From NCBI GenBank assembly GCA_010093605.1, contig MU004195.1:186001-250000 (forward strand): 64,000 nt of DNA, read 5' to 3'. The notes beneath the pieces are model-generated. The model had not been told where the DNA came from. It ran no database searches and saw only the letters and a list, made by a program, of their open reading frames with translations. Origin of the DNA: Lophium mytilinum. Lineage: Eukaryota. This document shows positions 2,833 through 59,595 of the stretch, one piece after another (position 1 is the stretch's first letter; each line of letters starts with the position of its first letter). Made by a program: the position numbers and the translations under genes.

Positions 2833-3339
2833 ATGACGACTTTCCAATTGCTTGTCGTGCGTGATGACAGCGCCGGCACACTCAACCCCACCATGATCAA
2901 CCTCCTCATCGCCCTGATGGTGCTCATTCTCGTGGGCCTCTGCGCCATTGGACTTCTATTCTGGCTGAGAAGCGTGCGAAGAGCCAAGAAGGGATCTGAC
3001 CTCCCCCTATACAACGAAAAATCAAACTCGAAGTCCTTGAACCACCGTCGCTTGACTATCACCGTCCAGGAGAAGCAGAATCTCATCGACAACTCCTCCA
3101 GCCCTCCACCCAGCCCGGTCCCGGAGATCCGCATCACTTTCCCCGACGAGGTAGACGAGACGGGCAAGAAGCAGTCTGGTCGTGTCGTGGTCGTACGTGT
3201 TGGCGACCACAGCGTCGGATTGGAGCCTTTGAACGAGGATCTGCCCCCATACCAGAAGGACTCGTCGGATCGATTCCAGTCTCTCGATCTCGACCGCATT
3301 GGAGGCTTGAAGGAGAAGGACGAGAAGAGATGGTCATAG
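2833..3339 (+). CDS. Fungal single-pass membrane protein of unknown function (168 aa)
   Basis: ATG at 2833 within ORF 2554-3339. One hydrophobic helix (INLLIALMVLILVGLCAIGLLFWL) is followed by basic residues. Pro-rich SPPPSPVPEIRITFP and LPPY motifs; coding-like codon usage. Confidence 0.75.
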   Translation: MTTFQLLVVRDDSAGTLNPTMINLLIALMVLILVGLCAIGLLFWLRSVRRAKKGSDLPLYNEKSNSKSLNHRRLTITVQEKQNLIDNSSSPPPSPVPEIRITFPDEVDETGKKQSGRVVVVRVGDHSVGLEPLNEDLPPYQKDSSDRFQSLDLDRIGGLKEKDEKRWS

Positions 3340-4053
3340 TCGACCGTGTTCCACGCCACCCATGTCCTTAATCCTTAATCGGCATCCTTCAACTATACTC
3401 TCCCGCCCGCCGACTACCCTACTCTTCCGCACTTCCCTTCATGCCACTTGGCTATGACCCGATATTATTATTATTGTTGACGACATGTACAGTTGTGCTG
3501 ATTGTCTTCTTCGCGGCGCTTCACTTCTCAGCAGCAGCCGTGCGAAGATTGTCTATGGGGTATAGGCCTAGCTTCGGCCTCTTTGTACATTTCTCAGAGA
3601 AGAGTTTGGAGTGCGCAAGTGCTTCCAGTCTTCTCTATTGAGGTTATAACCTCTTATGTAGCTTCTATTCTTAATGTATGATACATCCCTCTGAATTGGT
3701 TTGCTGCTCCGATGCAACTGGGGAAATCAATGCCAATCTAACTGCCATATTCCTGGCGCCATTGTGACGTGAACCTGCTGGACATGATGTGTTTGCCAAG
3801 CCTCAACGGTGAACGTGCTAGGTACTCGCTTCATTGTGTAAACTCAGCACCCTTGCACAGCTTATAGGGCATGCGATAATAATATCAAGAGGCTAATAAA
3901 GTATTGCAAGCAATGGTAAAGTCATGGATGCCATCTACATCCTAGCGCTGTGGATCTTCTCTTGACAACCCGTGCCATGGTTCTCGACGCGAGTTAGCCC
4001 GCCAAATTGATCGCGAATTGTTCACGAATCTCGCTTTCGCGTCACCAACGGCA

Positions 4054-7000
4054 ATGGAGGACCCTCTGCCATCTTATGAGGGCCTTGCTGCGGCCTTTGC
4101 AAAGGCAAAGGCTGAGAAGGAAAAGGAAGAAGCTTCAGGCTTGAGGGATCGAACAGAATACGCAAAGGTGTCCAACAAGCAAGCAGAGGTGCGGTTCAAA
4201 GCCGCCCACGGCCTTCTACTCGCCTTCTTCTCCTGGATCCTGTAATTATCAACAACATGCGATTCCGGGCGGCTCACTAATGATGTCTTAGTCTCCTCCA
4301 TATCCTAGGCGTATACCTATTCACCAGTGGATTCCTCCTTACCAGACTTGTCCTCGACTACAACTCTTCCTGCGCCGTGCCTCCAGTAGAGTTGACGCGA
4401 TCATACCAGGCAGGATCGCCAGAGTCGGGCTGTTGGCATCCTAAGACCTTTGAAAAGGCAGTCGTCATCATTGTTGACGCCCTCCGATACGACTTCACCG
4501 TCCCATTTAGACCCCAAGGCATAGACGACAAGCCCCATCATTACCACAATGCGATACCCGTCTTCTATGAGACCGCGGTCCAGCATCCCAACAATGCGTT
4601 CCTACTACCTTTCATCGCTGACCCCCCAACTACGACGTTACAGCGATTGAAGGGATTGACAACCGGAACACTACCGACATTTATAGACGCGGGCTCAAAT
4701 TTTGCTGGAACGGCAATAGAGGAAGACAATCTCGTGGCACAACTGCGCAATGCTAGTAAGAGGATAGTTCACCTCGGGGATGATACTTGGCAAGCCTTAT
4801 TTCCTGGCTATTTTGAGCCCAATCTCACAAAGGCCTACGACTCCTTTAATGTATGGGACTTGCATACGGTGGACAACGGCGTCACAGAGCACATATTTCC
4901 CTTGCTACATCCTTCCAATTCGAGCAAATGGGATGTGGTATTTGGGCACTATCTTGGAGTCGACCACGCTGGTCATAGATACGGTCCAGACCATCCTGCC
5001 ATGACCTCTAAATTAGAGCAAATGGATGGGGTATTTCGAAGAATGATAGAAGTTCTCGACGATTCGACACTCCTAGTTGTCATGGGTGATCATGGCATGG
5101 ATGCGAAAGGTGACCACGGCGGCGAATCGGACGATGAGATTCAAGCAGCTCTATGGATGTACTCTAAGAAAGGCATCTTTGGACGTAGCAACCCCGCCAA
5201 ACAAGAGCCTCCAGCTACGGCCAAAGAGAGGCCTGTTGCTCAAATAGACCTTGTGTCTACCCTATCCCTTCTACTAGGCATGCCTATTCCATTCAACAAC
5301 CTAGGGGCCCCTATTGAAGAGGCATTTATTGGTAAAAAGGGGCAGGACTACGAGAACCTAGCCCTGGTCAATCGTTTGGCAACATCTCAGATTCACCGGT
5401 ACCAACACGAGTACTCTCAGGCACGAGGCTTGGACGAGAATGCCAGATCAAGTTCCTTGTCCCTCTGGGCAGCAGCGGAGGATTCCTGGGCATCTTTAGC
5501 TACAACCAAATCGCCATCCGCAAAGCAGTGGAACAATGCTTATTCGGCCTTTTCCGCATATCAGCGCGAGACTCTGAGTGTCTGTCGCGCTCTTTGGGCC
5601 AGATTCGACGTAGCGAGAATGGTCCATGGTGTCGAGATCTTAGCCTTTACACTTGTTGTCCTGGCCATCTATGCTCGTGGTATCGAGGGAGACCGTACTG
5701 AACTAACCCCAGCTCTTCTACTTAGGGCTGTGATCGGTACGGCTCTTGGGCTATTAGTCGGCCTAGCTGTAGGGTTCGGTGTGCCTTCGCTACCTTTCGA
5801 ACACACTTTGATATACTCTACAGCGATAGGCAGCGTCGCAGGTTTTGCTTCGGGCTTTTGGTACGTACGGCGAAGACTAATATCGCCCTTGCCACGCTCC
5901 ATATGGGGCTGGGTTGGTGTCGTCCTTACGGTCGCTCTTTCGGTAGGCTTCGCATCCAATTCCTTCACAATTTGGGAGGATGAGATACTGCTCCACTTTT
6001 TGAGTACATTTGGTGTACTCATGACAATTTCGTCCTTACGACAGCCAGACCTCATCGATCGAGCCCTCGGTTGCTATCACTCCATCTTGTTTATTGTTCT
6101 CACTCGCATCGCCTCTCTCTCCAGACTATGCCGAGAAGAACAGATGCCGTATTGCAAATCAACATACTACGCCTCTGCCAACTCTTCGACTTCCGCAACT
6201 TGGCAGTTAGCCATTCCCTTCTTCGTGGCTTTCACACTTCCCAATCTCCTGCGATCATACTTCAAGAACACTCGATCATATCAAGGCTCCGCTATTTTGT
6301 GGATTGATTTCGCGTTCCGCACTGGATTACTCATAAGTGCTGCTTTCTGGACAATGGATGCTGCAGATGACGGGGATTGGTTCCCCGGATACGGAGCGTT
6401 ACTGAAGACCTCCAAGATCATTCTAGCACAGATTGTTTTTGCTATAGCTTTAGCAGCTGGTTATTCTACCTTCGCCTGGGCCGCTCCACTGCTCAGCATT
6501 GAGACGAAATCGAGCTCAGCTGCCGAGGATTCTGAAAACCGCTCCCGACAGGTAGTAGCTGAAGGTGGAAGCTCGTCGATCACCATCCTGGGCTATGCGA
6601 ACGTTCATGGATCCCGATATGCACTCCTCATTACAATGTGGCTCCTTGCTGTCATTCTAGTGCAGAAGCCAATGGGCGGAGGCGCTATCGGGCTTCTAGG
6701 GTGGCAAATATTCTCTCTGTTCGAGATCATCGACACGAACAAGCTTTCGGATACACCAGTCGGGCCTCTACTCCTAGGTTTTCTAGGATCCTTTCACTTC
6801 TTCAAGACTGGCCACCAAGCAACCCTTTCCAGCATTCAATGGGAGAGTGCTTTCATCCCTCTCAAGACTATCAAATATCCATGGTCTCCGCTTCTCATCG
6901 TTCTCAACACTTTCGGGGCGCAGATCCTCTGCGCAGTCGCTGTACCGGCTGTCGTCCTCTGGAAACAACCACCTAAGAAGAAAGGGCTGCTCGGAGACGT

Positions 7001-39524: not shown

Positions 39525-40583
39525 TTACGTTGATTTACAAAACAATGGTCCTAACGGTCCTGTGAGTAAGCTCTTCGAGTCATCTGCTTCCACAGCATCA
39601 AGCATCGCTTTCCCCAGCTGAACGAGTTCCGCTGTACCTTCCTCATCCGTCCACCTCATCCTCGAGTAGAAGATTATATGCACGGCGAAATGCACAACAA
39701 GCCGAATCTTGTCACGCTGCTCTAGTGGATGTTCAGTTAGATACGCCTTTAGAAAAGCTTCGAACATTCCCTTGCCACCGTGAAATCGATCGACCATCCA
39801 TGAGTCTGCAGCAAATCGCCCAACATCAGTGGCGCCGTTTCCCACACGAACAGTTTCCCAATCAATGATTGTCAACACAGGTGCCCACAGCTTGATCTCA
39901 TCCTCTTTCTCTACTTTGACAGCATCATCCTGGTTCTCGAGCTGGATGTTTGGCAGCCAGAAGTCACCATGGCATAGACACGTTTTGTCCGAAGCAGTTT
40001 CGGTGCCAAATTTCGTGTTGATGCGCTCTCCGAGAGCAGGGTCGTGGCCATGTTGTTTCAGGACAGAGGCTAGACCATTATAGGTGTATCTGAAGATGGA
40101 CTTTGCAGTTTCATTGTCGAACGTCCTCTTGACGAAATCCAGCGTGTCTGGCTCTGAAGTCTCCCTGTGCAGTTTCGCCAGCCAGGAGCCTATCCTCCGA
40201 CCGAGAAGGGGGATATCGATGTTATCGTCATTTTTATAGCTTTCTTTGAGATCTTGTGACCCCCCGTCAGACATACACATTACATGCTCGTCAGGAAAGT
40301 AGTTATACAGCTGCGGAAGGCGAACGTGCTCGTTTGTGGACATTATGTCGGGAATAGCTGTCAACGCTAAGTGCTCGTAGTCCATCCTTTCGATAGCCAG
40401 TGGGACATCAGGCATTATGCGAACGTAGGGCTCCGCATGTTTAGCGATGCTGTGCTTGCCAAGTTCTGTCTTGATACGCCAACAGAAGTTGGCTGACCCT
40501 CCAGCAAGGTCCTCAATCTCGTGGCAGGGTATGTCCTTCGAGGATAGAAAACGACGAAGTTCTAATTCGGTAGTGATTGGCAT
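39525..40583 (-). CDS. APH/choline-kinase-like small-molecule phosphotransferase
   Basis: LAGGSANFCWR loop, IAKHAEPY, CHGDFWLPNI (Brenner motif) and IIDWE; intronless. Confidence 0.88.
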   Translation of the reverse strand: MPITTELELRRFLSSKDIPCHEIEDLAGGSANFCWRIKTELGKHSIAKHAEPYVRIMPDVPLAIERMDYEHLALTAIPDIMSTNEHVRLPQLYNYFPDEHVMCMSDGGSQDLKESYKNDDNIDIPLLGRRIGSWLAKLHRETSEPDTLDFVKRTFDNETAKSIFRYTYNGLASVLKQHGHDPALGERINTKFGTETASDKTCLCHGDFWLPNIQLENQDDAVKVEKEDEIKLWAPVLTIIDWETVRVGNGATDVGRFAADSWMVDRFHGGKGMFEAFLKAYLTEHPLEQRDKIRLVVHFAVHIIFYSRMRWTDEEGTAELVQLGKAMLDAVEADDSKSLLTGPLGPLFCKST

Positions 40584-41164
40584 GATATCAGAGAGAATGA
40601 TTTGTCTAGAGTATCGTGGCGACTGTATCTTTTTAAGGTTTGTGTCTTGTCGGCATATCATCAGCAGGTGGGTTGAGAGCGTTGCGCTGCTGCCTGGGCT
40701 GCCGTATGAAGAACGGCGCAGCTCGCCTACGATTTCTCGGAACCACCATCTGTAGAATATCGCAGCTCAAAGCCATATTGATATCATCACGGTGGTTGAA
40801 GGCGCAAGCACTACAGAGCAGCCACAGATCGGACAGCCATGGGCTGGTGCGAGTCCTCAGAAACTTTGAATTACCGTCGAAAACTACATCGCACGTCCGT
40901 TATCCACTACCCCTAAACCGCCCCTTTCTACAGGCCTACTGGTTCTCTCCACGCCACATTATTGGATCCTTGGTAGTACTGTAATACCGGTGGATTTTTT
41001 GCGGGCCGGTACACTCCTGAACACAACAGATGATGACCAGGGGGACTTCCCGAGGGCTTGATGCGCCACGAACATGGAGCTCGCATATATGAAGAAAACA
41101 TAAGCTGGCACATGGACGGAAACATACTTGTCTACTCTTAAGCTGAATACCTCTTGTCATCAAT

Positions 41165-42249: not shown

Positions 42250-43741
42250 TTATGGATCGTAAGGGCCAATTGCTCGTCGGCCACTCAATATCTCAGGAGG
42301 ACCATCTTCCTTGACAAGGAAGACATCCTCATGACGTATACCAAACCTACCAACCAGGTAAACACCTGGCTCATTGGTGAACGTCATACCCGCACGAAGC
42401 ATCTGATTATTACCTTGATGTAGGTAGGGTGCTTCGTGCGCCTTGATTCCGATGCCGTGGCCAACACGATGTGTGAACATGGGTCCATATCCAGCTTGGG
42501 TTATGACAGTGCGAGCTGCAATATCGACATCTTTTGCCCTGCTCTCGGGTGTGAACCTCTGTGCAGCGGAGGTCTGGGCATCTAAAACTAGTTGCCAGAC
42601 TTTCAGCTTCTCTTGATGGAGCCTGAAACCAGTTTTGTGGAGGGGGGACCACCCAGAGGCAAGAAAGGTAAGAAGAGCTCCGATTCTAGAAGGCTTGGGC
42701 GGAGGAATGAAGAACGAACGGCAGATGTCTGACGAGTACCCAAGATAATGCGCTCCGACATCGATTAGGACCATAGTGTCCTGCTCCAGAACCTTGTCTC
42801 CTGTCACAAAGCCTCCATGGGGAAGTGCGGCATTTTCTTCGAACAGCACAAGGTTAAAGAAGAGAGAGAATCCGATGGATAGTAGTGTTTGGTCGAGGAC
42901 AGTCACAACTTCGTCTTCAGTGAGACCCGGGAGCAGACAGCTTCGAACTGCTCTTACTGCTTCCACGGTTCCAGTATTAACGGCTCTAAGAATTTCGATT
43001 TCCGCGGCGCTCTTCGTCTGTCGAAGGGCCTCGATTTCCATGTCCAACCCTACGGTGCTAAAGCCGTTGCTCGACAAACCACGGACAATGAAATCCCTCA
43101 TTTCCTCATCTACCATGATTATTGGGTCCTTCGTATGGGAGAACAGTCCCTGCTTCAGAGTTTGATACGGGTTCCAATGTTCTTCCCAGGTCACGATGTT
43201 CAGGCTGTGTTCTGAGGGTATTCCAAGCATCCTGACTCTTCCCTCTTCAAATTTGGGGCTCAAAAACGAGGTTTTGGCATGGATCTGTCCACCGTCTTCG
43301 ACTCTCGGTTCGACGATCATCAGAAAGGGTCGTTCCTCGGGCTCCCAAGGCTCCCACGACGTTTGAGAAATGTTGCCATAGTATTCGAAGGTATAGCCAG
43401 GTTCTAAGACGAAACCATCAACTCCAGACGCCGCAAGTGCCTTCGCCAGCTTATTCCGACGATCGATGAATTCGTGGGACGTGATTGGATGCGCATCATG
43501 GAGGAACGAGGTGTCCCGCTGGATTGTGTCGATCGAGCATTGCTGAACGCGATCGATTGCCGATTTCTGCGTGAATGGTAACTATTGAGAAAGTCAAAAC
43601 CAGAATCTCAATTTACAGAGATTAGCCTACAAGAGTCACTAATGTCAGGATGAGCAGAGCTATGAGTGCACTGCTGATTCGAATGCGATGGGTGGAAGGT
43701 TTCCCCAGTTCCCTTGCGCCTTTGGAATACTCATCCCTCAT
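42250..43741 (-). CDS. Xaa-Pro peptidase (M24B, prolidase-like) with N-terminal signal anchor
   Basis: Metal-ligand motifs IDVGAH, YSSDICRS, FTHRVGHGIG, HEAPY, TNEPGVY and RHEDV. First exon carries a hydrophobic helix; intron ~43582-43630. Confidence 0.88.
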
Positions 43742-44115: not shown

Positions 44116-46008
44116 TCATCTCGCCGCCTTCTCTTTCCACTCATTGACCAAGTCCTTGTAGTCTTCTGGCCCGTATGGGTCAAACATTTCTGCCGTGCTG
44201 CTGCTCTTCCGGTGCTTGTTGAGCCCTAAGTCGCCCAGAAGCATGTCCACATAGGGCATCGCATCAAAGACAAAATCCGGCACCCTCGCCCCATAACCGC
44301 ATGGATACCGCCATTTAACAAACCGAGAATGCAGCATCGTTACCCACCGCGCATCCCGAGTCGACGCTGGCAGGCGGGCGAGCTTTGTATCGAAGTATGC
44401 CGAGATCCAAAGCGCTTGCGTCTGAGCGCACATTGCGGTTGTGATGGTTGTCAGCATGCCTGCAAATGCGATGTTCCGATGTTCGAGGCTGTTAGGAGGA
44501 ACTATGAAGCGATAAAGGTTCAACGGAAGAGGCACTCCTTCTTCCCTGTCCTGTTGTGACAACACGGGTTGCGCCCGGAGGCGTGGGAATCGCTTCAAAA
44601 TTTCGGCATCTGCCCGTCTTTCCAGCTGCAGACTTTCCGAGTTCATGGAGTGGTGCGAGAAGTCGATCCCCGAATCTAGGCCTGGTGGTAGGAATCTCAG
44701 CGGAGGACGAGCCGTGAATCCAGTCGCGCACACAAGAACGTCTGCTTCAAGCTCTTCTCCGGTGGAAAGATGGACAGTATTCGCGGAGAGATCCGTGACA
44801 TCTGCAATATGGACTCTAATCATTCCATCCCTGACCAATGCGAAGAAGTCTGTTGGATAGTTGAGAATACTCAGCCCACTTCCAATCCAGAACGCACTGT
44901 TCCATGGCTTCAGCTTCTCCACCTCTGGATGCTTTCTGAATCCGTTCAAGGCAATAACGTCATTGCTTAAAACACTCCAAAATGCGTCCACGACTTTGCG
45001 CCCGATGAAGGTCCCATGCAGAAGTCCACGAATCCTCGAATAGCCATCCTCGTCTCCCCAGATGCAAGGGCTAAACCAGGTCAAGAATCGAGTATGTACG
45101 AGCTTTTCCAGCCACTTTCGGAATGGCGTAACGTGCGCTGGTGCCATCCAAACTGGACCTTTTCCACCTCTCCGTACAATCATATTGACTTTGACCCCGG
45201 ACGTCGCGTAGGCGTAGGCACAATCCCAGGCTGATTTCGCTGCGCCCAGAACAACGACGCTCCTCGCTGAACTGAGGGTTTTCGAGTGGTCTGGGAAGTA
45301 CCGAGAATGAAAAACCGGGTTTTGAAATTGTTCACGCCCTGGAAGGTCCGGAATATTCGGCTCAGACGCCAACCCGGTTGCAACGATTAGCCTTTTGGTG
45401 CTAAGGTACCGCGGGTGCTTCGAAGTCGTATCAGCCGGTGCAACATGAACCTTCCAACGTCCAGAATCCGAGCCCCTGCCCGAGGCATCTATGTTTGTGG
45501 GCAAGGATGAGGAGTTGGAATGTGAGTGTGCGTCCAGCATGCCAGATGAAGAGAGGAGCTTATGATTTGATAGTATTGTATCGTCACCGGATGCTTCATA
45601 CTCAATCGTTTCCACCTTCGTATTGAAGCGTATGAGTCCGAACACACCGAAGTGCTCAGCATAGTTGGTCAGATATCGGTGTAGTACTGCACCGGAAATG
45701 TGTTCTCCTGGGTTGACACCGTAGTCATGCGACATCGGATAATCGCTGAACTCATACGTTCCCAGTATATTGTTTGCTCTCAATCCCGGATAGATACGAT
45801 CCATTCCCCATACGCCTCCAGCTGTCGCAGCAGCTTCGACGACGATAACTTTCTCTGTCGGATGAAGCTGGACATACGTCTTCGCAGCTGCAAGGCCGAA
45901 CCATCCTGATCATATCAGAAAAGCTCGAAGAGATGTCATTAAATGACGCGGGCAGGCGTCCACGCTTCTCTTACCGGCACCAATGATAACCAGATCGTAG
46001 TCTTCCAT
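44116..46008 (-). CDS. Flavin-containing monooxygenase (FMO-like)
   Basis: MEDYDLVIIGAG/WFGLAAA (FAD fold, intron ~45906-45974), IVATG, FQNPVFHS, VVVLGAAKSAWD and VCATGF. Confidence 0.9.
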
Positions 46009-46830: not shown

Positions 46831-47255
46831 TGGAGGATAAAGCCGGGCAGCGGAGGGCAACTTTCTTGGCATCATATCTGAATGGTGAGCTAATAAAGTT
46901 GTAACGATTTGGTTATGTTTTAAATCCATGCAGGTGAACAAGCAAAAATCATGTGGCTATCGCATCTAAAGATTTTGGACCTCAATATGGGTGGGCCACA
47001 TATTCTGGAACCTGGAGAGACTCATGCCAAGCGGCACGCCCACGGTTGCATGCGGTTCCCTCCTAGCTAGACTTCTATGATTGCGCACATCGCCCAAATA
47101 TATACAAGGGCGATATTTCTAGTGCAGGGTCGTCAAGCTTGAGTAGCTACGGGTCACAGTTTTTAACATCGCCCATTTTAAAAAGAATTGTGTCGCACTG
47201 CTGTACACACCCATCTTCTTATCCACCGTAGCTTTCCGAATTCATCATCATCGCA

Positions 47256-48998
47256 ATGGATGTCCAAACCCAGAGTGGCTTGATGAGCTTGCCAAGCGAG
47301 CTGATGTCGTCGATAGCCTCATTTCTTTCGGACTCGGATTTGACCAACTTGTGCCATGTGAGCAAATGTTGGAACGACATTGCCACGAGGGATCTATGGC
47401 AGGAGATGGGAATTGTTGTTACCGGAAACTCAATTGAAATGATAAGAAATGCCCGAAAGTTGACGCTCGACATCGGCCAAATGACCGCCCACCCTGGACC
47501 AGCTCAGATTCGGAAGCTACATCTATTCCCCGAAACTGAAGCACCCAGGAATAATCAGGCTCAGGTCACAACCGCAGTCCTTAGTGCTCTCACGCCAAAC
47601 AAGCTCATTCAATTTTCTCTCTTAGCAGCCGATGCCGATTGCTTGGGACTACTTGCGAGAAAGCAGAAACGCCTTGAGCATCTATCAATGCGGTACTGCT
47701 GCCAGTTCTGGCCTTCTTCTTTTGTCGAGACCCTATCTTTTCCCTCGCTCAAAAAGCTTTGTCTATACAAGACTCATGCCCCAACCCACGAGCTTTCCGA
47801 AGGAAGGAATAACGTGGGGGTCATCATTCAAAACGCTTCCAATCTGACTTGCCTACAATACACGTGTCTACCCGATCAAAGGGAACGATCGGGCTTGGAA
47901 AATGCTTTAAGACACAGATATGAAGGCTCCACGCACTCCCCGCTAAGGCTCCAGTCACTCATGCTGAGCGGCCAGGACTTGTCCATTGACACACTACTGG
48001 AAACTATTACTTCGAATGTTGAACTTTGCTGGATCAGGACACTTTATCTACGATGCTGTCCATACGCCCACAAGTTTTTAGCAATCCTCTCGCGAGAGAA
48101 CAAATTGCTACTCAAAACATTCGTCTTTGCACAACACAACGCCAATACTTTGCCCACGTCGACACTTACAACCTTCCTGCAATCATTTTCCGGGCTGGAA
48201 CATCTGTGCATTGATCTAAATGGAGACCAGCCACTGCCCGCAATCGAAGACTTCGGGAACCATGCCGCCACTCTCGTCACTCTCATAGTGAACCGTCGAT
48301 ATCGTCGCTATGACAGACCAGCATATTCTCTCTCCGAGATTGCGCACTTGTGTGCGTTGCTCAGCCAGCTGCAGCGACTAGCCATCCAAATCCCAGCTCT
48401 GAAATGCCCCACGAAACCAGGGGACGATTTTATCTCCCAAGCCGGCATGACGGAGTTTCTCGTAAGCACAACCTAGAAATGGTTGAATGGAAGCTAACTC
48501 CTTCTCTAGAAAGCAGTGACTACTCTTCCTTCGTTGAACACCCTGAGAATAACAAACATGCCCTGCCTGTATCGAGGGGTTCGCTCTTCTGTCGATGTTG
48601 CCGGGTTTCCACAGTGTGCTGATCAGTACCTCGAAACCTTAGAGTCTCTAGCAACGCAATGCTTCAAATATCTGCTTCAGACCCAGAAGAATTCCAAAGT
48701 GGACCAGCTTTTCTTCTCTCCTCTAACTTGTATTTCTGTTTGGTGTAGCCCCAGAGATTGCATTCATCCAGCCGGATGCAACTGCACGTCCCGCAAGATC
48801 TATCCTCAAGGCTATCGCCGACGTGTCTTGCCAGGCGGGATTGATTGCGCTGTAGTGTTTGCTGAGCCATTTCGGTTGCCCAGACATGACGATGCCCCCG
48901 GAGAACCCGAGCCAGATCCACACTTCTTACCAATTTCAGACGACGAGGGGTTTTCAAGGTACTATCACGAATGGGTTGACGGCGAAAGCAGTAGGTAG
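47256..48998 (+). CDS. F-box protein with leucine-rich repeat-like region
   Basis: LMSLPSELMSSIASFLSDSDLTNLCHVSKCWNDIA (F-box) and repeated LxxLxL motifs. Intron 48462-48509. Confidence 0.8.
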
Positions 48999-50114: not shown

Positions 50115-51619
50115 TCAATCTTTCTTAAAGAAATTCAACAGGTTCGTCTGATTGGGACTGATTGGTTTTGGGCCCTTGTAGGGCTTGCCCTTCGGAGGCT
50201 TCTCACCAATCCTCATGACCTCCATCAGCTCCTCGAACTCTTTCTTCCCCACAACTCCCCCACTAGCCTCCTTATGGCCCCTAGCATAGTTATCCCCGAG
50301 CCTCTCCTTCAATCCGTCCGGTGCCTCACTGGATTCCGCAAAATCTCTCAATTTTCGAATGATGTCGACCGGCTCCTCACGCGCTCTAGCGCTCCTCGTA
50401 ATACGGCACGAGAAGTTCACAAGATCAGGGAGATACCCTTCATTTGCACACATGACGACCTCTAGTTTCTCGCTTTTGAGGTACCCGGCCCAGCGGGTGG
50501 CGATGACGGGGTGAACTTGTGCTTTGCTGTTGATGCGAAGGACGCATATTGTACCGTCGAAGGAGAATTTCGGTGCCGTGTGAGCCCACTTCTCCACCTC
50601 TTCATTGACCTCGAACCTCGCGGCTTTGAGTGTTGGGCTATTCACGATCACGCTTGGTGTTTTGGCTGCAAGGAGGGCGTCCCATGCGGGTTTAACATCG
50701 TAAGAGGCGGCGCGGCGAGGGGCGTTGATCATTGAGACACAGTCGTTGATGGCTTTGCGGGAGTGGAAGTTGAACATGTCGTTCATATTTGGGAAGGGTT
50801 CTTTCCACTTGAGGTTGTTGCCTAAGTCTCCGTGGGTTCCGACTGCGCAGAGCCAGTCGAGATGAGCGCCTAGTTCTGGGTGGAGCTGTGTACAGAGGAG
50901 ATAGGTTAGGAGCGAGGTCGTTACTACTGGAGGGCATTCGCAAGCATTGATGACTACAGCGTTTTCTGGGAAGCCTCCAGCTTCGGCGAAGTGGTGGTCA
51001 ATGATCAGGCCTCGATGCTCGGTGTCGATGATAGGAGGTGCTTTGCGCGATCCCTGGTCCAAGACGAAGATGAAGACCGGCTCGTAGGAGGCCATGGCGG
51101 TTCTTTCGGCCTCGTCGTGCACATTGTTACCCTTTGCGACGAGATGCACGGAAATTAGCTCAGGGGAAAGGCCTAGGTGTGTAAGGGTGTGGTGTAGGAT
51201 GACGCCTGAAGTCAGTCCATCCGCGTCCTTGTCTGGCACAATAAGGGTACGTTTCTGCGCCTTGACGCTGTGGAGAGCTGTTAGTCGAGGACGAGTGCAG
51301 ATGTGCAACGCTGTTTGTGGTGCCCCAGTAGGCCAAATGGAGTCAGGAAGTAGAGAGTAACTGGCGTTTTTCCGGGTCAGATAACCCTTCGAAGCACCAC
51401 AAACAGTGGCACCATAGAGCATTGAGACAGAACTTTAGCCTACCATTCTTGGATGAAAGACTTCGCACGGTCGATCTGGGTCTGAGGAGCTGGCCATATG
51501 GCTTCGCCGGTTTCCGGATCGCGCACCTGAGCAGTGAGATGATAATCTGGAATGGCAATCCTGGGCTTCTTCGGCTTCTTTGAAGGAGGAGCAGGCTCGG
51601 CCTTACGCTTTCCAGCCAT
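50115..51619 (-). CDS. RecJ-like DHH-family phosphoesterase/nuclease
   Basis: Exon 1 MAGKRKAE..., intron 51268-51443, then PDKDADGLTS, VLDQG, IIDHH, VGTHGD, INAPRR, FSCR and RGHKEASG. Confidence 0.85.
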
Positions 51620-52502
51620 AATCGCTGGCGATAGTCTATAATTGAGAGTTGATAGGTTTGAAAGAGCAACGGAAGAAGATTGGGAGGGAAGAGCAGGCTT
51701 GAAAGTTAGTATTGAGTGATGAAAGTGAGAAGAAAGCGGAGTAGCAAGAAGCCAGGTCAACGACCTCACTTTGAAAACGTTAGTTGTTTTCATCGATTTA
51801 GGCCTGATGCATGAAGGTGGTGAGGAAGGTCTTGAATCGATGATGTAGTCGAGCCTTGCGCCACTAGCGCCACATCCGGCCAACCATTACCTATCCATCC
51901 TCCAGGCCTGCAGTTGAAGTGCTAGTACGCTACTTGCATTCGTTGGACAGCACATCAAACATTTCGATACATTCCTGAAACTCTAGATAAGACATAAGTG
52001 TATTCTTGAGCAATCTGCTATCTGGTAGGGCTACCTTCATTGACGTCATTCCACGACTCAAAGAAATTGCCGCATGATCGAGGAAGCCTAAAGTACTTGA
52101 GTTGCATTCAGAGACTCGAAAGAGGGCGAATGCGCTATCTTCAATTGCTTTTTATGTCGAATGGTCATCTCAGGCGAAGTAGCAGACTACTCAAAATACA
52201 TTATAACACATACAAGTCCACTTTTGGCGAAGTATACTGGGACGCCACGAGCAATGGTTGCCAGTATACACAGATATCTGACTCATGTACATTAGTATAA
52301 TCTCAACTTCGCATATAGCTGCAGTATCTTCTTCACAGACTTCGAGAAAGGGTTTAAAGCCTCAAGGCTATTTTGATTTGGCCAAAACCGTAGACCCATG
52401 TAGAGCCCTAGAAAAGACAAAGGAAGAGAGCCTGTACAGCCTTGGGAAGGCCCTTCAGAAGGTCGAATTCGTGGGGATGTAAGTGCCCCTTCCGCAATGT
52501 CG

Positions 52503-53570: not shown

Positions 53571-54956
53571 CTACAACTTCGCATCCCCCAAACTCTTCCT
53601 CCCTCCAAACCCGAAGAGATACGCAGCCACCTTCCTCATCTGAATCTCCTCACTCCCCTCCGTAATCCTATATCTCCGATGATGTCTCCAGATATGCTCG
53701 AAGGGAAAGTGCCTACTATATCCATTGCCACCATGAACTTGAATCGCCCGATCCGCCGCCTCACAGCACAGCCTATTAGCCCAGTAGTTACACATAGATA
53801 CCTTGTCCCCAAGCTTCTTCTCAATTTCTGCATGCGGCATCGAGTCCATCTCCAGGGCTGTCTTACGGATCAATAAACGCAACATCTCGGCTTGCGTCGC
53901 TAACTCAACGAGCGGGAACTGGATGGCCTGGTTGTGCGCCAGAGGCACTCCGAAGGGAGCGCGCTCATTGGCGTACTCGACTGATGATTTAATGCAGAAG
54001 ACGGCGGCGCCGAGGGATGACGCCGCCTGGCGGATGCGGTTCTCATGGACAAAGGCTTGCGCGACGGCAAGGCCATTGTGGATGGGTCCCAGGACGGAGG
54101 TGGACGAAACCCAGACGTTTTTGATGGAGACGGTGGCGTGGTCGGTTGGCATGTTCAGCGTCCTTTAGACAATCAGTATCTGGACCCTCTCCTCTAATAA
54201 TGGGATACAGGGTGGAAGGGAATATACAAACCATTGATAACTCTCTGCCTTGATTCCCGGGTCCTGCCTAGGCGCAATAAAACAGCTAATCCCCTTCACA
54301 CTCCCATCCTTCCCCTCAGTCCTCGCAAAAATGAAGCAATGCGTCGCATTGTGCATCCCTGTCTGCCACTTCTTGAACCCGTTGATCAACCACCCATCAA
54401 CCCCATCCCGCTTCTCCGGCCTCGCTCGCGTCTCCATATGCGTTGCATCACTCCCATGATTCGGCTCCGTCAGCCCAAACGTAATCCGCACCTTACCCTG
54501 CAACCGGCCCCCAATCAGCTCCTTCTTCTGCGCCGGCGTCCCAAAATTTTCTACCATGATCACGTCGGGGAAGTTGCCGACCATCGAGTGCTCAGTTTGG
54601 AGGTCGTTGAAGAGTCCGAGGCCTTTGGCGGCGAGGTGCTCTCTGATAACAGCCATCCAGAGATTGCTTCCTCGACCGTCGCTGCTGTTCTGGCCTCCAT
54701 ACTCTTTTGGCAGTGAAAGGCGGTAGAAGCCTGCCTCATCTGCCAGCTGTTTCGACTCGGCGAGCAGCTCTTCCCACTCTGGGCGTGGTAGACCGTTATT
54801 GTCCCAATCCGTTCGGGCGTGCTCGCGACGGTGATCGAAGAAACGATTATTGTCGTTCTTGTTCTGCAATGGCGTGATCTTTGTTTGTATGAAGTTGTCT
54901 AGGTCTTTGAGATACTGAACGAGATCCGGAGGTAGCGAGAAGTTCATGGCGGCCAT
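53571..54956 (-). CDS. Acyl-CoA dehydrogenase with PTS1 (-AKL)
   Basis: FGLTEPNHGSDA, INGFKKW, YANERAPFG, AIQVHGGNG and RITEGSEEIQ. Intron 54163-54231; C-terminal AKL. Confidence 0.93.
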
Positions 54957-55605
54957 TATGGAAGTCTCAAGGTGTGATTAGCAGTACAAGGAGAGTATAG
55001 AGATCCAGAAGAGTAGAAAAAGGAAAGAGATGGATGAAATGGAATTGATTTGAATTGCTATATACGTTGATCATGGTGGCCCCATGCTGACTCGCACGGG
55101 TCGTTTGCTCCCGGGGAGGTTTGATGGTGATGTTCATGCGGGCGGGGTCTAAGAGGCCGAGGTTGGATGGTATAGAAATCACGTGAGAAACTGCCCATAC
55201 TCCTCTGCTTTGGCCAAGTTAGCCTACCGGGTGTTCGGAATTTCCGACTTCGTCTCACATGGATTTCTGAACATAAGGGACCACAAGCGGCGGCAAATGC
55301 TTGTATATAAACCTATAAAGATCTATGCATGGCATCTTGATCCGCTCTCGCAGCGGATGTCAGGAAGCCGTGAGCACGCAGAAATCCACAACCGCGGAAC
55401 TATCACACCGAATACAGTGTGATATTCCACACCTTTGGGGTGCCACTTAGTATTTCCTGGGTGTCCAAATGCAAAATCGAAGGAATATGATCTACAAAGT
55501 CCGAGGAAAAGTCCTTTTTGATGCCGTGAAAATGCAAGAGTGCGCCAATCGCTATGCAAAATATGAAACCCAGGGTATCTGTGATGAATAAGGCAGCCTG
55601 CGCCT

Positions 55606-57776
55606 TCAAGGACCCCGAAAGTCGTTGAAAATGCCAATCAAGTCGTCAACGCGCTCCAGTTGAACCAAGAGCTTCAACTCGGTCTGTGACCACTCGCGTA
55701 GCTTTTGTTTGTCCAACTTGCTCAAATACTTATCTTCGTTACCTTTGACGTCCGTACGTTCCGCTTTCTCGATGTGTTCGAGCTTCGCTAGGCGCTCCAT
55801 CTCGATTCTCTGGAGGATACGAGCCATGGCTTTGTACGCATCCTCCAACAGTAACCGCCTGACCCGGTCCTGGTCGTAGAACCACAGGAATATAGTTCGG
55901 CTCGGATGACGACTGTTGTCTTTTGGAATTTCTTGAAGGTCCAGGAAACCCGCTGCTTGCATCTGACTGAGGATAGGACGGATTTCTTTTGGTCGGCACA
56001 TACCCAAGCTGGCAACTTGTTTCTCGTCCAATTTACCCTTGTTATGCAGAAGTCGCAGGAGTCGCATGCCGAGGCGTTCGAATCGAGATTGAACAGTCTC
56101 TTCAATTTGGTTCTGGATGAGGTACTTGCTTAGACGTGGAAACTCCACATACCATTCACTGATTCCTCGTGAGCTGGCCCAACTAGCAAGGTGCCGAGGA
56201 TCTTCGGAGAGCATCTTGATGTGTCTCTCGACTAGCTTGCCTCGGTTGACTAAGGTATCGCTACCATCCTTGGTGTTTCCATTGACGAATTCGGGATTTT
56301 CAGCGAGACCGTCGTAGAGGTCTACACTCTTGTCCAGGACTTCCGCAACTCTCACGACGCTAGCCTTTGCGTCAATAACGACGACGATCTTGTCCGGGTC
56401 CGGGTCGGGATCGACGAATTTATATGGATCATAGCATCTTGGGAGCTGTTCTTCTAAAAGTTGGAGAAAGGCTCTATACACCTTGGACGTTGTTTCTCCG
56501 ATGAAACGGTTTGCCAGACGGACGAGCTGTTCTGTGCGCATTGCAACGCTGACCTTTTCTGGGCTGACGCGCACAACGAGATCGCCCTATTGAAGATTAG
56601 GCAAAGTCGGGGAGAGAGCATCAATTGCCTTACATCGAGCAACACGCCGTCATCAGCAGCGAACCCTGCTTTGGAGTAACTGGCACCATTCACACCGTTT
56701 GTTCTGGCTCGTTTGGCGGGCGGCAAGGCAGAGGACGTGGCGGGACGTTTGGAGCCGGTTTGGATGCTTGAAGTCGAGAAATCGAGCCCTTGATCCCGTA
56801 GCTGGCGCATGCGCTCTTTGAGATGGCGGTGCAGCGCCTGAACCTGCTTCGGACCTTTTGGGGGCTTACCCTTTTCGAAACGATGGTCTAGGACCCAAGC
56901 TTCGGCGTCAAGGCGTTGGTCGGAGAGAGGCCAGAAATCTCGCTGGTCCACAGGGACGATCCAACCGGCCTTCAGCAGGCGGTGTAGGATGGCATGCATC
57001 TCAGCATCAGACTCGACGTAGGTTTCTGGCTTGTCCTGAACGATTGCCGATCCATTGGTAGTGACTCCATTGCTGTTCTCCACGCTGCCGACTTCCCCGC
57101 CGTTACCAGCGCTATCGTCATTGCTTGCGTCGCCACTGATAGCCTTTTTGGCGCTTGTCATCTGACCGTTGACGCCCTCATGCTTGATCGTGGTTCCGTT
57201 TGGAAGCGTCGAGCTCACATCCGCCTTCTTGTGAATCTTTCCGTAGGCAGCCGCGAGATCAGAGACTTTCGCATGTCCCGAGTTCAGCAATGTAGTGACA
57301 ATTTCGCCGGCCTCTTGTCCATACCGCCCCTCTACTAGTCTCGCGATCTTCCCGAGGCGTCCCAGATTGTGCGCGTGTTCCCAGCTGACTTCGTAAAATG
57401 CGATTTCCTCAAGCTCGGATTGGAGGACAAGTTGGAATTGTAGAAGGGTGGCGAGGCCGTGCTTGAAAAGCTTGCTGGTGAGGGTCGATGCTCGAATAAG
57501 ACCAGCTAGATGCTGCCGCCCAACATGCGCAACCGTAGCAAAGACGTCCTGGGAAAATCAGCACCGAGCTTTAACTAGGTCGCACAGGCGAGAATTGTGC
57601 AAGGAATATGTGAAACCCCACGCAGGAAGCCGAGTATAGTACTTACAGCAGCCAATTCGCCAAACTCCTTCTCTACGAGGAGCGTGCAGAGCTCCGTAAC
57701 GTTCTGCAGAGAAAGTCAGTATGATTCATCCCACTTGGAGCGTTCGGGTCGGGCATGCGCGACGTACTTTCGACAT
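55606..57776 (-). CDS. RPC82: RNA polymerase III subunit C82/RPC3
   Basis: MSK/NVTELCTLLVEKEFGELAA N-terminus, LLHNKGKLDEKQ and LQEIPKDNSRHPSRTIFLWFYD; several introns. Confidence 0.9.
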
Positions 57777-58033: not shown

Positions 58034-59595
58034 ATGCTCTCGCGCTCTGCTCTCCGCCGGGGCGCTCTACGGTGCCAGTTCGCGCAGCCCGTGCAAAAGC
58101 GCTACCTTGCCGAAGCTGCGTCCGGCTCGTTCCAGTATCAGACCGGCGATGCCAGCGGAGTCAAGATCGCTAGTAGAGATCTCGCAGGACCTACAACGAC
58201 CCTCGCCTTGGTGTCGAAGGCCGGCACGAGATACCAGCTGCTCCCTGGGCTGACGGAGGGCCTAGAGAAATTCGCATTCCGGGTACGGCTATCCAATTGA
58301 GACGGAAAGAAAGCTGCCCTGAAGCTCTGCTAACCTTCAATTCTGCGGCAGGGGACAGAACGACGGTCCGCGTTGCGCATTGTTCGAGAATCCGAGCTCC
58401 TGGGCGCCGAATTGGAATCCTACCACTCCCGGGAGAACCTCGTCATTGGAGCCAAGTTCCTGCGAGACGACCTCCCATACTTCGTCGAGCTACTCGCTGA
58501 AGTTGCGTCTTCGACAAAATACCTTCGTATGTAGAAGTGACCATGGATGGCGTTCAGATGATTGGAATTGACAATTGCAACAGCCCATGTCTACACCGAA
58601 GAGGTTCTCCCTCTCATCAAGCTGGCCCACAAGAAGTTCTTGGCCAGCCCCAAGGCGATAGCTCTCAGCTCAGCGCATAGCCTGGCTTTCCACCGCGGTC
58701 TCGGGACGCCCGTGAGCCCCGCGTCTGCCACGCCATACACGAAATACCTAGCCGCCGACACCATCGAATACTTCGCCCAGTTTGCCTACGCAAAGCCCAA
58801 CTTCGCCATTGTTGCCAACGGTGCTGAGCATGCCGACCTGTCGAAATGGGTCAACGAGTTCTTCGGTGGCGTGTCCGCCAAAGCCCCAGAAGACCTGCTC
58901 CAGTCCGTCCGGGATAAACAGACCAAGTACTACGGTGGTGAGGAGCGTATTGCCCACGGCTCCGGCAACTCGTTGGTCCTCGCTTTCCCCGGCTCAAGCT
59001 CCTTTACGGGCGGTTTCTACAAGCCCGAGATCCAGGTTTTGGCGTCCCTACTTGGCGGCAAGTCCAGCATCAAGTGGTCGTCCGGCTTCTCCCTGCTCTC
59101 CAAGGCCGCCGCCAGCCCCGGCACCAGCGTGGAAACCAAGAGCGCCATCTACTCCGACGCCGGCCTTCTGTACATCAACATCAACGGCACTGCAGAGAAC
59201 GTCTCGGCGACTGCCATTGAGGCTGTCAAGACGCTGCACAGTATCGCAGGCGGCAAGATCAGCGCCGAGGACATCAAGAAGGCGAAGGCAGCGGCTAAGT
59301 TCCAGGAGCTCGAGACCGGCCAGGACATCACGGCAGGTTTGGAGCTGACTGGCTCTGGATTGACTCACGGAAGTAAGGCATACCAGCTCGACGAGACGGC
59401 GAAGGCTATCGAAGGTGTTACGGATGCTCAAGTTAAGGCTGTAAGTATCCCAAATTATGAATATCACAGTACTCTCAAGCTAATATATCTATTTCGCAGG
59501 CCGCCAAGACATTGCTCGAGAGCAAGGCAACAGTATCAGCAGTCGGCGATCTCTTCCTGCTGCCGTACGCGGAGGATCTAGGGCTCAAGGTGTAA
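58034..59595 (+). CDS. QCR2: Cytochrome bc1 complex core subunit 2
   Basis: Arg-rich presequence, KAGTRYQ..GLEKFAF, RSALRIVRESELLG, LLGGKSSIKWSSG, YSDAGL and VGDLFLLPYAEDLGLKV; three introns. Confidence 0.95.

Follow-up and report, generated by a model that had tools for sequence, protein, structure and literature searches.

In the stretch of Lophium mytilinum DNA analysed here (64 kb of contig MU004195.1, positions 186,001 to 250,000; the window), a two-exon gene on the minus strand (51619..50115; coding sequence of 1329 nt) encodes a 442-aa DHH/DHHA1 protein. With a probability of roughly one in two, this protein is a nuclear, PCNA-tethered 5'-end-processing exonuclease of excision repair, possibly acting downstream of the endonuclease UVDE. 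Whatever goes beyond conserved motifs, fold and gene context is inferred. An earlier reading of the DNA (the original prediction) had suggested an active, PCNA-tethered RecJ-like exonuclease, and this is supported computationally by the catalytic motifs, conservation of the C-terminal tail and a docking model. Coordinates of all features are given in Table 1.

The RecJ/DHH catalytic motifs are retained in the spliced protein, and translation places every motif of the original prediction where it had been reported. Motifs I–IV (DxD, D, DHH and D, which in this superfamily bind two metal ions), NAPRR, FSCR and GH..ASGG show little or no variation in alignments of 36 and of 48 family members. The APRR of the NAPRR segment is paired by hhalign with APRL of RecJ. 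In FSCR, the C and R are invariant and the F and S nearly invariant in the 48-member alignment; motif order suggests that it is the probable equivalent of RecJ motif VI. With all metal ligands invariant, the protein is probably catalytically competent. Cdc45, by comparison, lacks residues matching Asp79, Asp135 and His159 of Deinococcus radiodurans RecJ (PMC4846377). No Cdc45 chain was found in sequence searches of solved structures, and a catalytically dead, Cdc45-like scaffold seems hardly credible.

Profile searches also place the protein among RecJ-type enzymes. The exon-2 protein scores 27.7 bits with Pfam DHH (PF01368), against a gathering cut-off of 28.1, and PF01368 is precomputed for most orthologues among the matches listed. 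Pfam DHHA1 was not detected in the window protein, although RGHKEASGG is invariant and the modelled fold is that of DHHA1. Five NCBIfam models matched at E<=1; four are RecJ-type and the fifth is an amidotransferase at chance level (E 0.14). TIGR00644 matches residues 2–133 only (E 5e-10; 38.3 bits, cut-off 396.9), and the archaeal RecJ model gives 37.9 bits (E 9.7e-10, cut-off 360). A family profile run against solved structures returned 12 matches, consisting only of RecJ/GAN-type chains and three designed-repeat artefacts. Comparison with four canonical RecJ sequences by hhalign gave a probability of 97.3 (E 2e-11, 330 columns); the DHHA1 half of this alignment looks shifted by one beta-alpha unit and was excluded from residue equivalences. 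The restriction of relatives to RecJ types, with the motif invariance, supports at the computational level the earlier view of a RecJ-like, probably active enzyme.

An AlphaFold2 model built from 36 sequences (predicted local distance difference test, pLDDT, 86.9; predicted template modelling score 0.85) comprises a DHH domain, a helical linker and a DHHA1 domain, with the head and C-terminal tail disordered. Structures were ranked with Foldseek, with a second look by VIA-align. The model is nearest to bacterial 5'->3' RecJ, with scores of 28.8 for Thermus thermophilus RecJ (root-mean-square deviation 3.1, 319 residues aligned, model 27–399 on chain 51–416), 28.6 for D. radiodurans RecJ and 27.8 for Staphylococcus aureus RecJ; archaeal RecJ2 (23.6), GAN (22.8) and human Cdc45 (22.4) score lower. 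On this model, the window protein is a RecJ catalytic core without the oligonucleotide-binding (OB)-fold and C-terminal domains. RecJ chains of 616–756 residues align over the core only, and the window protein has no OB fold (the domain needed in RecJ for processive binding of ssDNA) after the core, stopping 46 residues past the DHHA1 motif (one helix and a disordered tail in the model).

The predicted core fold of DHH domain, long helical linker and DHHA1 domain is thus shared with bacterial RecJ (2zxo, 1ir6, 5f54-5f56, 8y30), but identity is only 17–21% and the eukaryotic members add a nuclear localization signal (NLS)-like head and a tail resembling a PCNA-interacting protein (PIP) box. Canonical RecJ is also present in all five of the tested bacterial genomes that carry a family member. 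The family is therefore a separate paralogue of RecJ, distinct from RecJ itself. The term 'RecJ-like' in the original prediction holds for the core and the motifs but not as a claim of orthology, given 38 bits against 396.9 and the missing OB fold. The family also differs from the archaeal RecJ homologues (GAN/PfuRecJ 5x4h; MjRecJ2 6tvv/7ykv; RecJ-Cdc45 7bhi) and Cdc45 in lacking the CID or GINS-binding insertion and, by the tree described below, in its bacterial rather than archaeal origin, and from Cdc45 in its intact catalytic residues.

Polarity of the enzyme would be 5'->3' by analogy with RecJ, through the motif V Arg and the Ser-x-Arg of motif VI. In D. radiodurans RecJ, the 5'-phosphate pocket consists of Arg109, Arg280 (motif V), Ser371 and Arg373 (motif VI); Arg280 binds the 5' phosphate and Tyr114 excludes ribose (PMC4846377). 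Arg109 and Tyr114 are paired by hhalign with non-conserved residues here, which leaves both the 5'-phosphate pocket and the basis of sugar discrimination recognizable only in part. Moreover, the phosphatase of Methanothermococcus thermolithotrophicus acting on 3'-phosphoadenosine 5'-phosphate (pAp) (MtPAPP, 8a8k) has a RecJ fold, so fold alone cannot decide between a nuclease and a small-substrate enzyme. In the structure comparison 8a8k scores 26.6 and the NrnA-type enzymes 16–18.6. It is nonetheless considered quite unlikely that the protein is a small-substrate phosphoesterase like NrnA or MtPAPP (a pAp phosphatase, nanoRNase or dinucleotide hydrolase) with a tail unrelated to PCNA.

The terminal motif QTNLLNFF lies at the extreme C terminus after a Lys/Pro linker, as first proposed and as translation bears out. 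The last 31 residues include seven K/R and six P. The pLDDT averages 61 over residues 401–410 and falls below 50 over residues 407–426, the PIP motif included (numbering of the NCBI model P0003). All 120 close homologues among the matches listed have tails of at least 40 residues past the DHHA1 motif, and 119 carry [LIMV]-x-x-[FYW]-[FYWLM] within the last 35 residues, compared with about 1.4% of shuffled tails. The canonical Q spacing is found in the window protein alone (1/120); 107 of the 120 have Q-x-N-T-L-x-N-Y-F, with the Q one residue farther from the Leu, and 11 have no Q. Of the QxxLxxFF noted in the original prediction, nearly all of these homologues share the hydrophobic/aromatic core, but not the canonical Q register. 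Among 47 diverse representatives with tails of at least 40 aa, the core is present in 39 (shuffled, about 1.5%): nine are canonical, 24 have the shifted Q, two have the core only and four have L-x-x-F-G-F. The remaining eight have none, several of them having the motif farther upstream or looking truncated. Canonical examples among the representatives are QKGIQQFF, QKRLESFF, QRKIKDFF and QKRLDQFF, and canonical QxxhxxFF occurs in Cryptotrichosporon, Sorochytrium, Pleurotus and Saitoella members. Bacterial members lack head and tail alike, stopping just past the final DHHA1 helix. A PIP degron was considered and rejected, because motif positions 5-6 are not T-D and only three residues come after the FF.

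Docking of the tail was modelled with the PCNA of Mytilinidion resinicola, a stand-in from the same family as Lophium. It was reached by scanning metagenome contigs with a degenerate PCNA C-terminal pattern, which led to an ascomycete-type exon and from there to named full-length PCNAs. The partner was residues 336-383 of the exon-2 protein, with the window's own canonical tail, and the complex prediction ran without supplied alignments. The interface score ipSAE was 0.78 (runs 0.79, 0.78 and 0.77), compared with 0.02 for the best of three controls; the runs share at least 61% of contacts and partner pLDDT is at least 55. In calibration on microbial proteins, the mark was reached by 51/78 solved complexes and 2/108 mismatched pairs, and on eukaryotic proteins by 39/65 solved pairs without a like older complex and 2/126 unrelated pairs. 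The modelled interface joins PCNA residues 40, 43-47, 124-129, 233-234, 250 and 252-257 to partner residues 369-383. The Leu and both Phe are placed centrally in the PCNA pocket, with the contacts of classical PIP peptides and low expected error. Modelling thus puts the tail in the PIP pocket, in agreement with the original prediction, and the window protein would be tethered to PCNA by its C-terminal motif.

Many marine and freshwater metagenome contigs (L006, L012, L020, L034 and others) hold intronless clamp-like open reading frames (ORFs) of 260-280 aa ending ..FYLAPKIGDD(D). Apart from the C-terminal motif they have nothing in common with fungal PCNA; they probably represent PCNA homologues of viruses or protists.

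A motif with an aromatic pair can be bound by more than one kind of partner. An active repair nuclease whose hxx(Y/F)F tail recruits the 9-1-1 clamp, Rev1 (as a motif like the Rev1-interacting region, RIR) or Mlh1 (as a motif like the Mlh1-interacting protein box, MIP) would fit the family-typical motif of the 107 homologues, which is out of PIP register, and the L-x-x-F-G-F of four representatives; the docking model, furthermore, covers the window's canonical tail only. Nevertheless, the family preserves PIP positions 4, 7 and 8, the terminal disordered location and the basic flanks; canonical spacing reappears in distant members; and the modelled PCNA pocket is contacted by the Leu and both Phe. 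An RIR needs a helix after its FF, and the three residues that follow it here (2-5 in most orthologues) are too few to form one. Recruitment of another partner is therefore judged decidedly improbable. The terminal disordered PIP-type motif, its basic flanks and the predicted docking under the PCNA interdomain connecting loop are likenesses to FEN1/Rad2, Exo1 and RNase H2B, as is the proposed step, removal of a displaced 5' strand, which Rad2 carries out in alternative excision repair. The catalytic fold is unrelated (DHH rather than FEN1/XPG), and most family members have a non-canonical Q register.

It is the bacterial relatives that point to excision repair, as UvdE or ligase genes adjoin a number of them and others are fused to a ligase. 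When one genome per species was scanned with a query of six bacterial sequences, 79 loci came to light, in Myxococcota, Acidobacteriota, Cyanobacteria, Armatimonadota, Chloroflexota, Actinomycetota, Planctomycetota and others. Pfam searches of crude neighbour ORFs at 43 loci revealed UvdE, ATP-dependent DNA ligase, RuvAB, uracil-DNA glycosylase and HU beside the DHH gene. Hidden Markov models (HMMs) made from neighbour ORFs were then run over all six frames of the 79 loci. UvdE directly adjoins the DHH gene in 33 loci from six named phyla (20 divergent, 6 UvdE->DHH, 7 DHH->UvdE), and a three-domain ATP-dependent ligase lies immediately upstream in six. Neither adjacency was seen in 120 unrelated metagenome loci or in five canonical RecJ loci. 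Of five genomes chosen because Pfam had detected no adjacent UvdE, four hold a UvdE, one copy of which is in fact adjacent.

Long proteins containing this DHH domain number 61, of which 54 (clusters) are ligase-DHH fusions of filamentous cyanobacteria (Microcoleus, Nostocales, Calothrix, Scytonema and others), about 650-1030 aa in length. These fusions (P0200, P0412-P0464) are annotated merely as 'ATP-dependent DNA ligase'. The fused ligase is of the three-domain type with an N-terminal DNA-binding domain (PF04675+PF01068+PF04679), and Pfam DHHA1 is weakly detected in one fusion member. The spread across phyla, the three arrangements and the fusions together argue for a functional link with UvdE and ligase, and the bacterial gene order of nickase, DHH nuclease and ligase matches the logic of the repair steps. 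The fusions are possible self-contained end-cleaning ligases. LigD is a bacterial ATP-dependent ligase with a phosphoesterase end-cleaning domain, and in both systems a single polypeptide or operon unites a ligase with a nuclease or phosphoesterase; the DHH/DHHA1 module and the three-domain type of ligase set the cyanobacterial fusions apart from LigD so described. No description of a ligase-DHH fusion was found in the literature searched.

Two other kinds of long protein were set aside. P0465, which combines the C-terminal half of the DHH domain with part of UvdE, is either a true fusion or a merged annotation and was not counted. The Pyrenophora proteins P0466-P0468 (1031-1180 aa), which join GH85 to the DHH protein, are probably merged neighbouring genes. 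P0471 (699 aa), a further fusion of repair enzymes, has Fpg/Nei glycosylase (PF01149, PF06831) and ATP-dependent ligase domains; its match is marginal and covers 13% of the query.

Some further features of the bacterial loci were noted. The DHH gene of a Vulcanimicrobiota metagenome-assembled genome (L168) comes right after ruvA and ruvB (3176-4951), and its start is overlapped by the ruvB frame. Of the four cyanobacterial loci in which UvdE is upstream (L156, L159, L162, L166), all have a gene for an iron-containing redox enzyme (Haem_oxygenas_2) after the DHH gene, and two have a DUF3140 gene ahead of UvdE on its strand (L166:3395-3739, L159:3521-3865). At four Thermoanaerobaculia/Acidobacteriota loci (L146, L151, L152, L158), a gene for an HU-type DNA-binding protein is directly downstream on the same strand.

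UVDE nicks DNA 5' of a lesion to leave a 3'-OH and a 5'-phosphate, after which Pol delta displaces the strand, Rad2/FEN1 removes it and ligase seals the nick (PMC13451438, PMC6264785). In fungi, the DHH enzyme would act after an incision 5' of the lesion, made by UVDE in alternative excision repair or by apurinic/apyrimidinic endonucleases in long-patch repair. PCNA would be loaded at the 3'-OH, and the C-terminal motif of the enzyme would bind the pocket under the interdomain connecting loop, putting it on the same PCNA as Pol delta, FEN1 and ligase. The tethered nuclease could then degrade or trim the lesion-bearing, 5'-phosphorylated strand displaced by Pol delta, and a ligatable nick would remain. 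For strand removal, a RecJ-core exonuclease able to start at a 5'-phosphate would be a natural alternative to Rad2/FEN1.

The same PCNA-tethered enzyme might instead serve replication, for example by clearing the lagging strand of RNA primers or of primer ends with mismatches; its polarity might then be 3'->5', like that of archaeal GAN, PfuRecJ or RecJ2. This reading is judged unlikely. The bacterial members have their links with UvdE, ATP-dependent ligase and RuvAB rather than with replication genes, and the structure is nearest to the bacterial 5'->3' RecJ. In addition, the family appears patchy in eukaryotes (matches in fungi, one amoebozoan and one green alga), which would not be expected of a core replication factor.

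A number of points weigh against the reading preferred here, besides the shifted Q register and the RecJ pocket residues without a conserved partner. An HMM search found no UvdE or ligase gene in the 64-kb window. In bacteria, neither gene is next door at 40/79 loci, some of them on short contigs; the 79 loci are related to one another, so that the 33 with adjacent UvdE are not independent events; and Corallococcus coralloides (G001) has the DHH gene but no UvdE in its genome. Nor does bacterial context automatically carry to fungi. PIP-PCNA complexes have been solved in abundance, so the result of the complex prediction may reflect memory and shows likeness rather than binding. Finally, the window protein is missing the OB fold of RecJ, and the nuclease core of D. 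radiodurans RecJ alone has much decreased activity and processivity (PMC4846377).

The basic NLS-like segment at the N terminus, part of the original prediction, is present and its pattern is conserved in orthologues. KRK-x10-KKPKKPR fits the bipartite NLS pattern, and M-K-R...K-K-P-R is kept in the orthologues, as a pattern match only. The WPAP segment that follows in exon 1 is also kept in bacterial members. Upstream, an in-frame ATG would add a 58-residue extension with no Asp/Glu, five Lys/Arg and 17 Ser/Thr, a presequence-like composition, and a comparable basic extension of 30-72 residues is present in 26/84 orthologue models that reach the WPAP segment. To judge from this putative presequence, the upstream ATG may give a mitochondrial besides a nuclear isoform, the longer form taking the enzyme to mitochondria. 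Such an isoform of the DHH protein would fit the mitochondrial location of Uve1 in Cryptococcus (PMC3764193).

A word-indexed search found 1291 relatives, the best 120 of which are fungal or unnamed proteins with 57-64% identity; an exhaustive search of representatives at 50% identity gave 655 proteins at E<=0.001. Representatives that were looked up belong to Cryptotrichosporon and Pleurotus (basidiomycetes), Saitoella (a taphrinomycete), Sorochytrium and Phlyctochytrium (chytrid-grade), Planoprotostelium (an amoebozoan) and Corallococcus (a myxobacterium, 'DHH family phosphoesterase'). With eukaryotic matches confined to the groups named above, most eukaryotes seem to lack the family.

The phylogeny suggested with the original prediction was built against bacterial RecJ, as a quick maximum-likelihood tree of 23 eukaryotic and 39 bacterial members with four canonical RecJ sequences as outgroup; rows were chosen for diversity and many close homologues were left out. 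All eukaryotic members fall in one clade (Shimodaira-Hasegawa-like approximate likelihood ratio test 99), which is nested among Corallococcus/Acidobacteriota-type bacterial sequences with supports of 87 and 92, values that are not decisive. This suggests that the family arose in bacteria and entered eukaryotes once. Since the single eukaryotic clade is nested among tail-less bacterial members, the head and tail would have been added after that entry. A broader scenario is put forward tentatively and is itself doubtful: a bacterial module for the repair of UV damage, made up of UvdE, DHH exonuclease and ATP-dependent ligase, would have given an early fungal ancestor its nuclease, which gained an NLS, a PCNA tail and an optional mitochondrial presequence and came to remove lesion strands after incision by UVDE, independently of FEN1/Exo1, in nucleus and mitochondria, the fusions being a new class of self-contained nick-cleaning ligases. 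The Planoprotostelium fungivorum protein (P0152) nests among basidiomycetes and has a tail of the L-x-x-L-G-F-F type; transfer from fungal prey or contamination is possible.

The textbook view is that the inactive Cdc45 is the sole RecJ relative in eukaryotic DNA metabolism. If the reading proposed here is true, the family is an active eukaryotic RecJ relative, widespread in fungi (the 1291 matches) and apparently wired to PCNA. No work on this DHH family was found in the literature searched, subscription journals and supplements lying outside it, so prior work may exist; within that scope, the role is uncharacterized, as the original prediction had held. RecJ and DHH do not occur in the available part of a 2026 review of fungal DNA repair (PMC13451438), which attributes what follows nicking by UVDE to Pol delta, Rad2/FEN1 and ligase. 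Loss of UVDE is reported there for Pseudogymnoascus destructans and entomopathogens. A term search found no mention of fungi in the available part of a 2012 phylogenomics paper on RecJ/Cdc45 (PMC3307487); in the text available, PMC7835796 has recJ in a reference only and PMC7445287 has DHH in a reference only. The bacterial pairing with UvdE and ligase gives the enzyme a concrete, testable place in alternative excision repair. The family is also a candidate explanation for the processing of UVDE nicks in mitochondria, which contain Uve1 in Cryptococcus (PMC3764193), and for biochemical work the cyanobacterial ligase-DHH fusions offer a convenient start.

The splice junction ..FIQEC|VKAQ.. is the same in aligned orthologues and in the 100%-identical P0003, which is annotated 'DHH family protein, partial [Lophium mytilinum]'. 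Contigs of one sequencing run (X1, its kind guessed) read straight across the intron; the run behaves as DNA.

Table 1. Parts of the DHH/DHHA1 gene and its neighbours in the window
Feature	Position	Strand	Remarks
Exon 1	51444..51619	-	176 nt, 58 codons + 2 nt; ATG at 51619, NLS-like segment, PxYH...WPAP segment
Intron	51268..51443	-	176 nt, GTAGGC...CTAAC...CAG; GT..AG, CTAAC branch-point-like site
Exon 2	50115..51267	-	1153 nt; DHH domain, helical linker, DHHA1, Lys/Pro tail, PIP motif, TGA at 50117-50115
Possible N-terminal extension	51620..51793	-	In-frame upstream ATG at 51793, 58 codons
Basic NLS-like segment KRKAEPAPPSKKPKKPR	51560..51610	-	Matches bipartite and monopartite classical NLS patterns
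DHH motif I, PDKDADG	51216..51236	-	Invariant; aligns to GDYDVDG of RecJ
DHH motif II, LDQGS	51048..51062	-	From family alignments and RecJ alignment
DHH motif III, DHH	50991..50999	-	From family alignments and RecJ alignment
DHH motif IV, GTHGD	50826..50840	-	From family alignments and RecJ alignment
NAPRR	50712..50726	-	Counterpart of RecJ motif V (APR.NAAGR); two invariant Arg
FSCR	50403..50414	-	Probable counterpart of RecJ motif VI (GSxRS), S-x-R of 5'-phosphate pocket
DHHA1 motif VII, RGHKEASGG	50256..50282	-	G, H, A, G, G invariant; aligns to GGH..AAG of RecJ
Lys/Pro-rich flexible linker GEKPPKGKPYKGPKPISPN	50151..50207	-	From model confidence and composition
QTNLLNFF	50127..50150	-	Canonical PIP-box pattern; followed by KKD and stop
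APH-like kinase	39528-40766	-	
M24 peptidase	42253-43581	-	
Flavin monooxygenase	44119-45909	-	
F-box protein	47232-48473	+	
Acyl-CoA dehydrogenase	53574-54977	-	
RPC82	55609-57557	-	
M16 peptidase	58562-59578	+	

The genes that flank the DHH gene are ordinary and unrelated to it. The window has a G+C content of 46.6% and includes 485 N.

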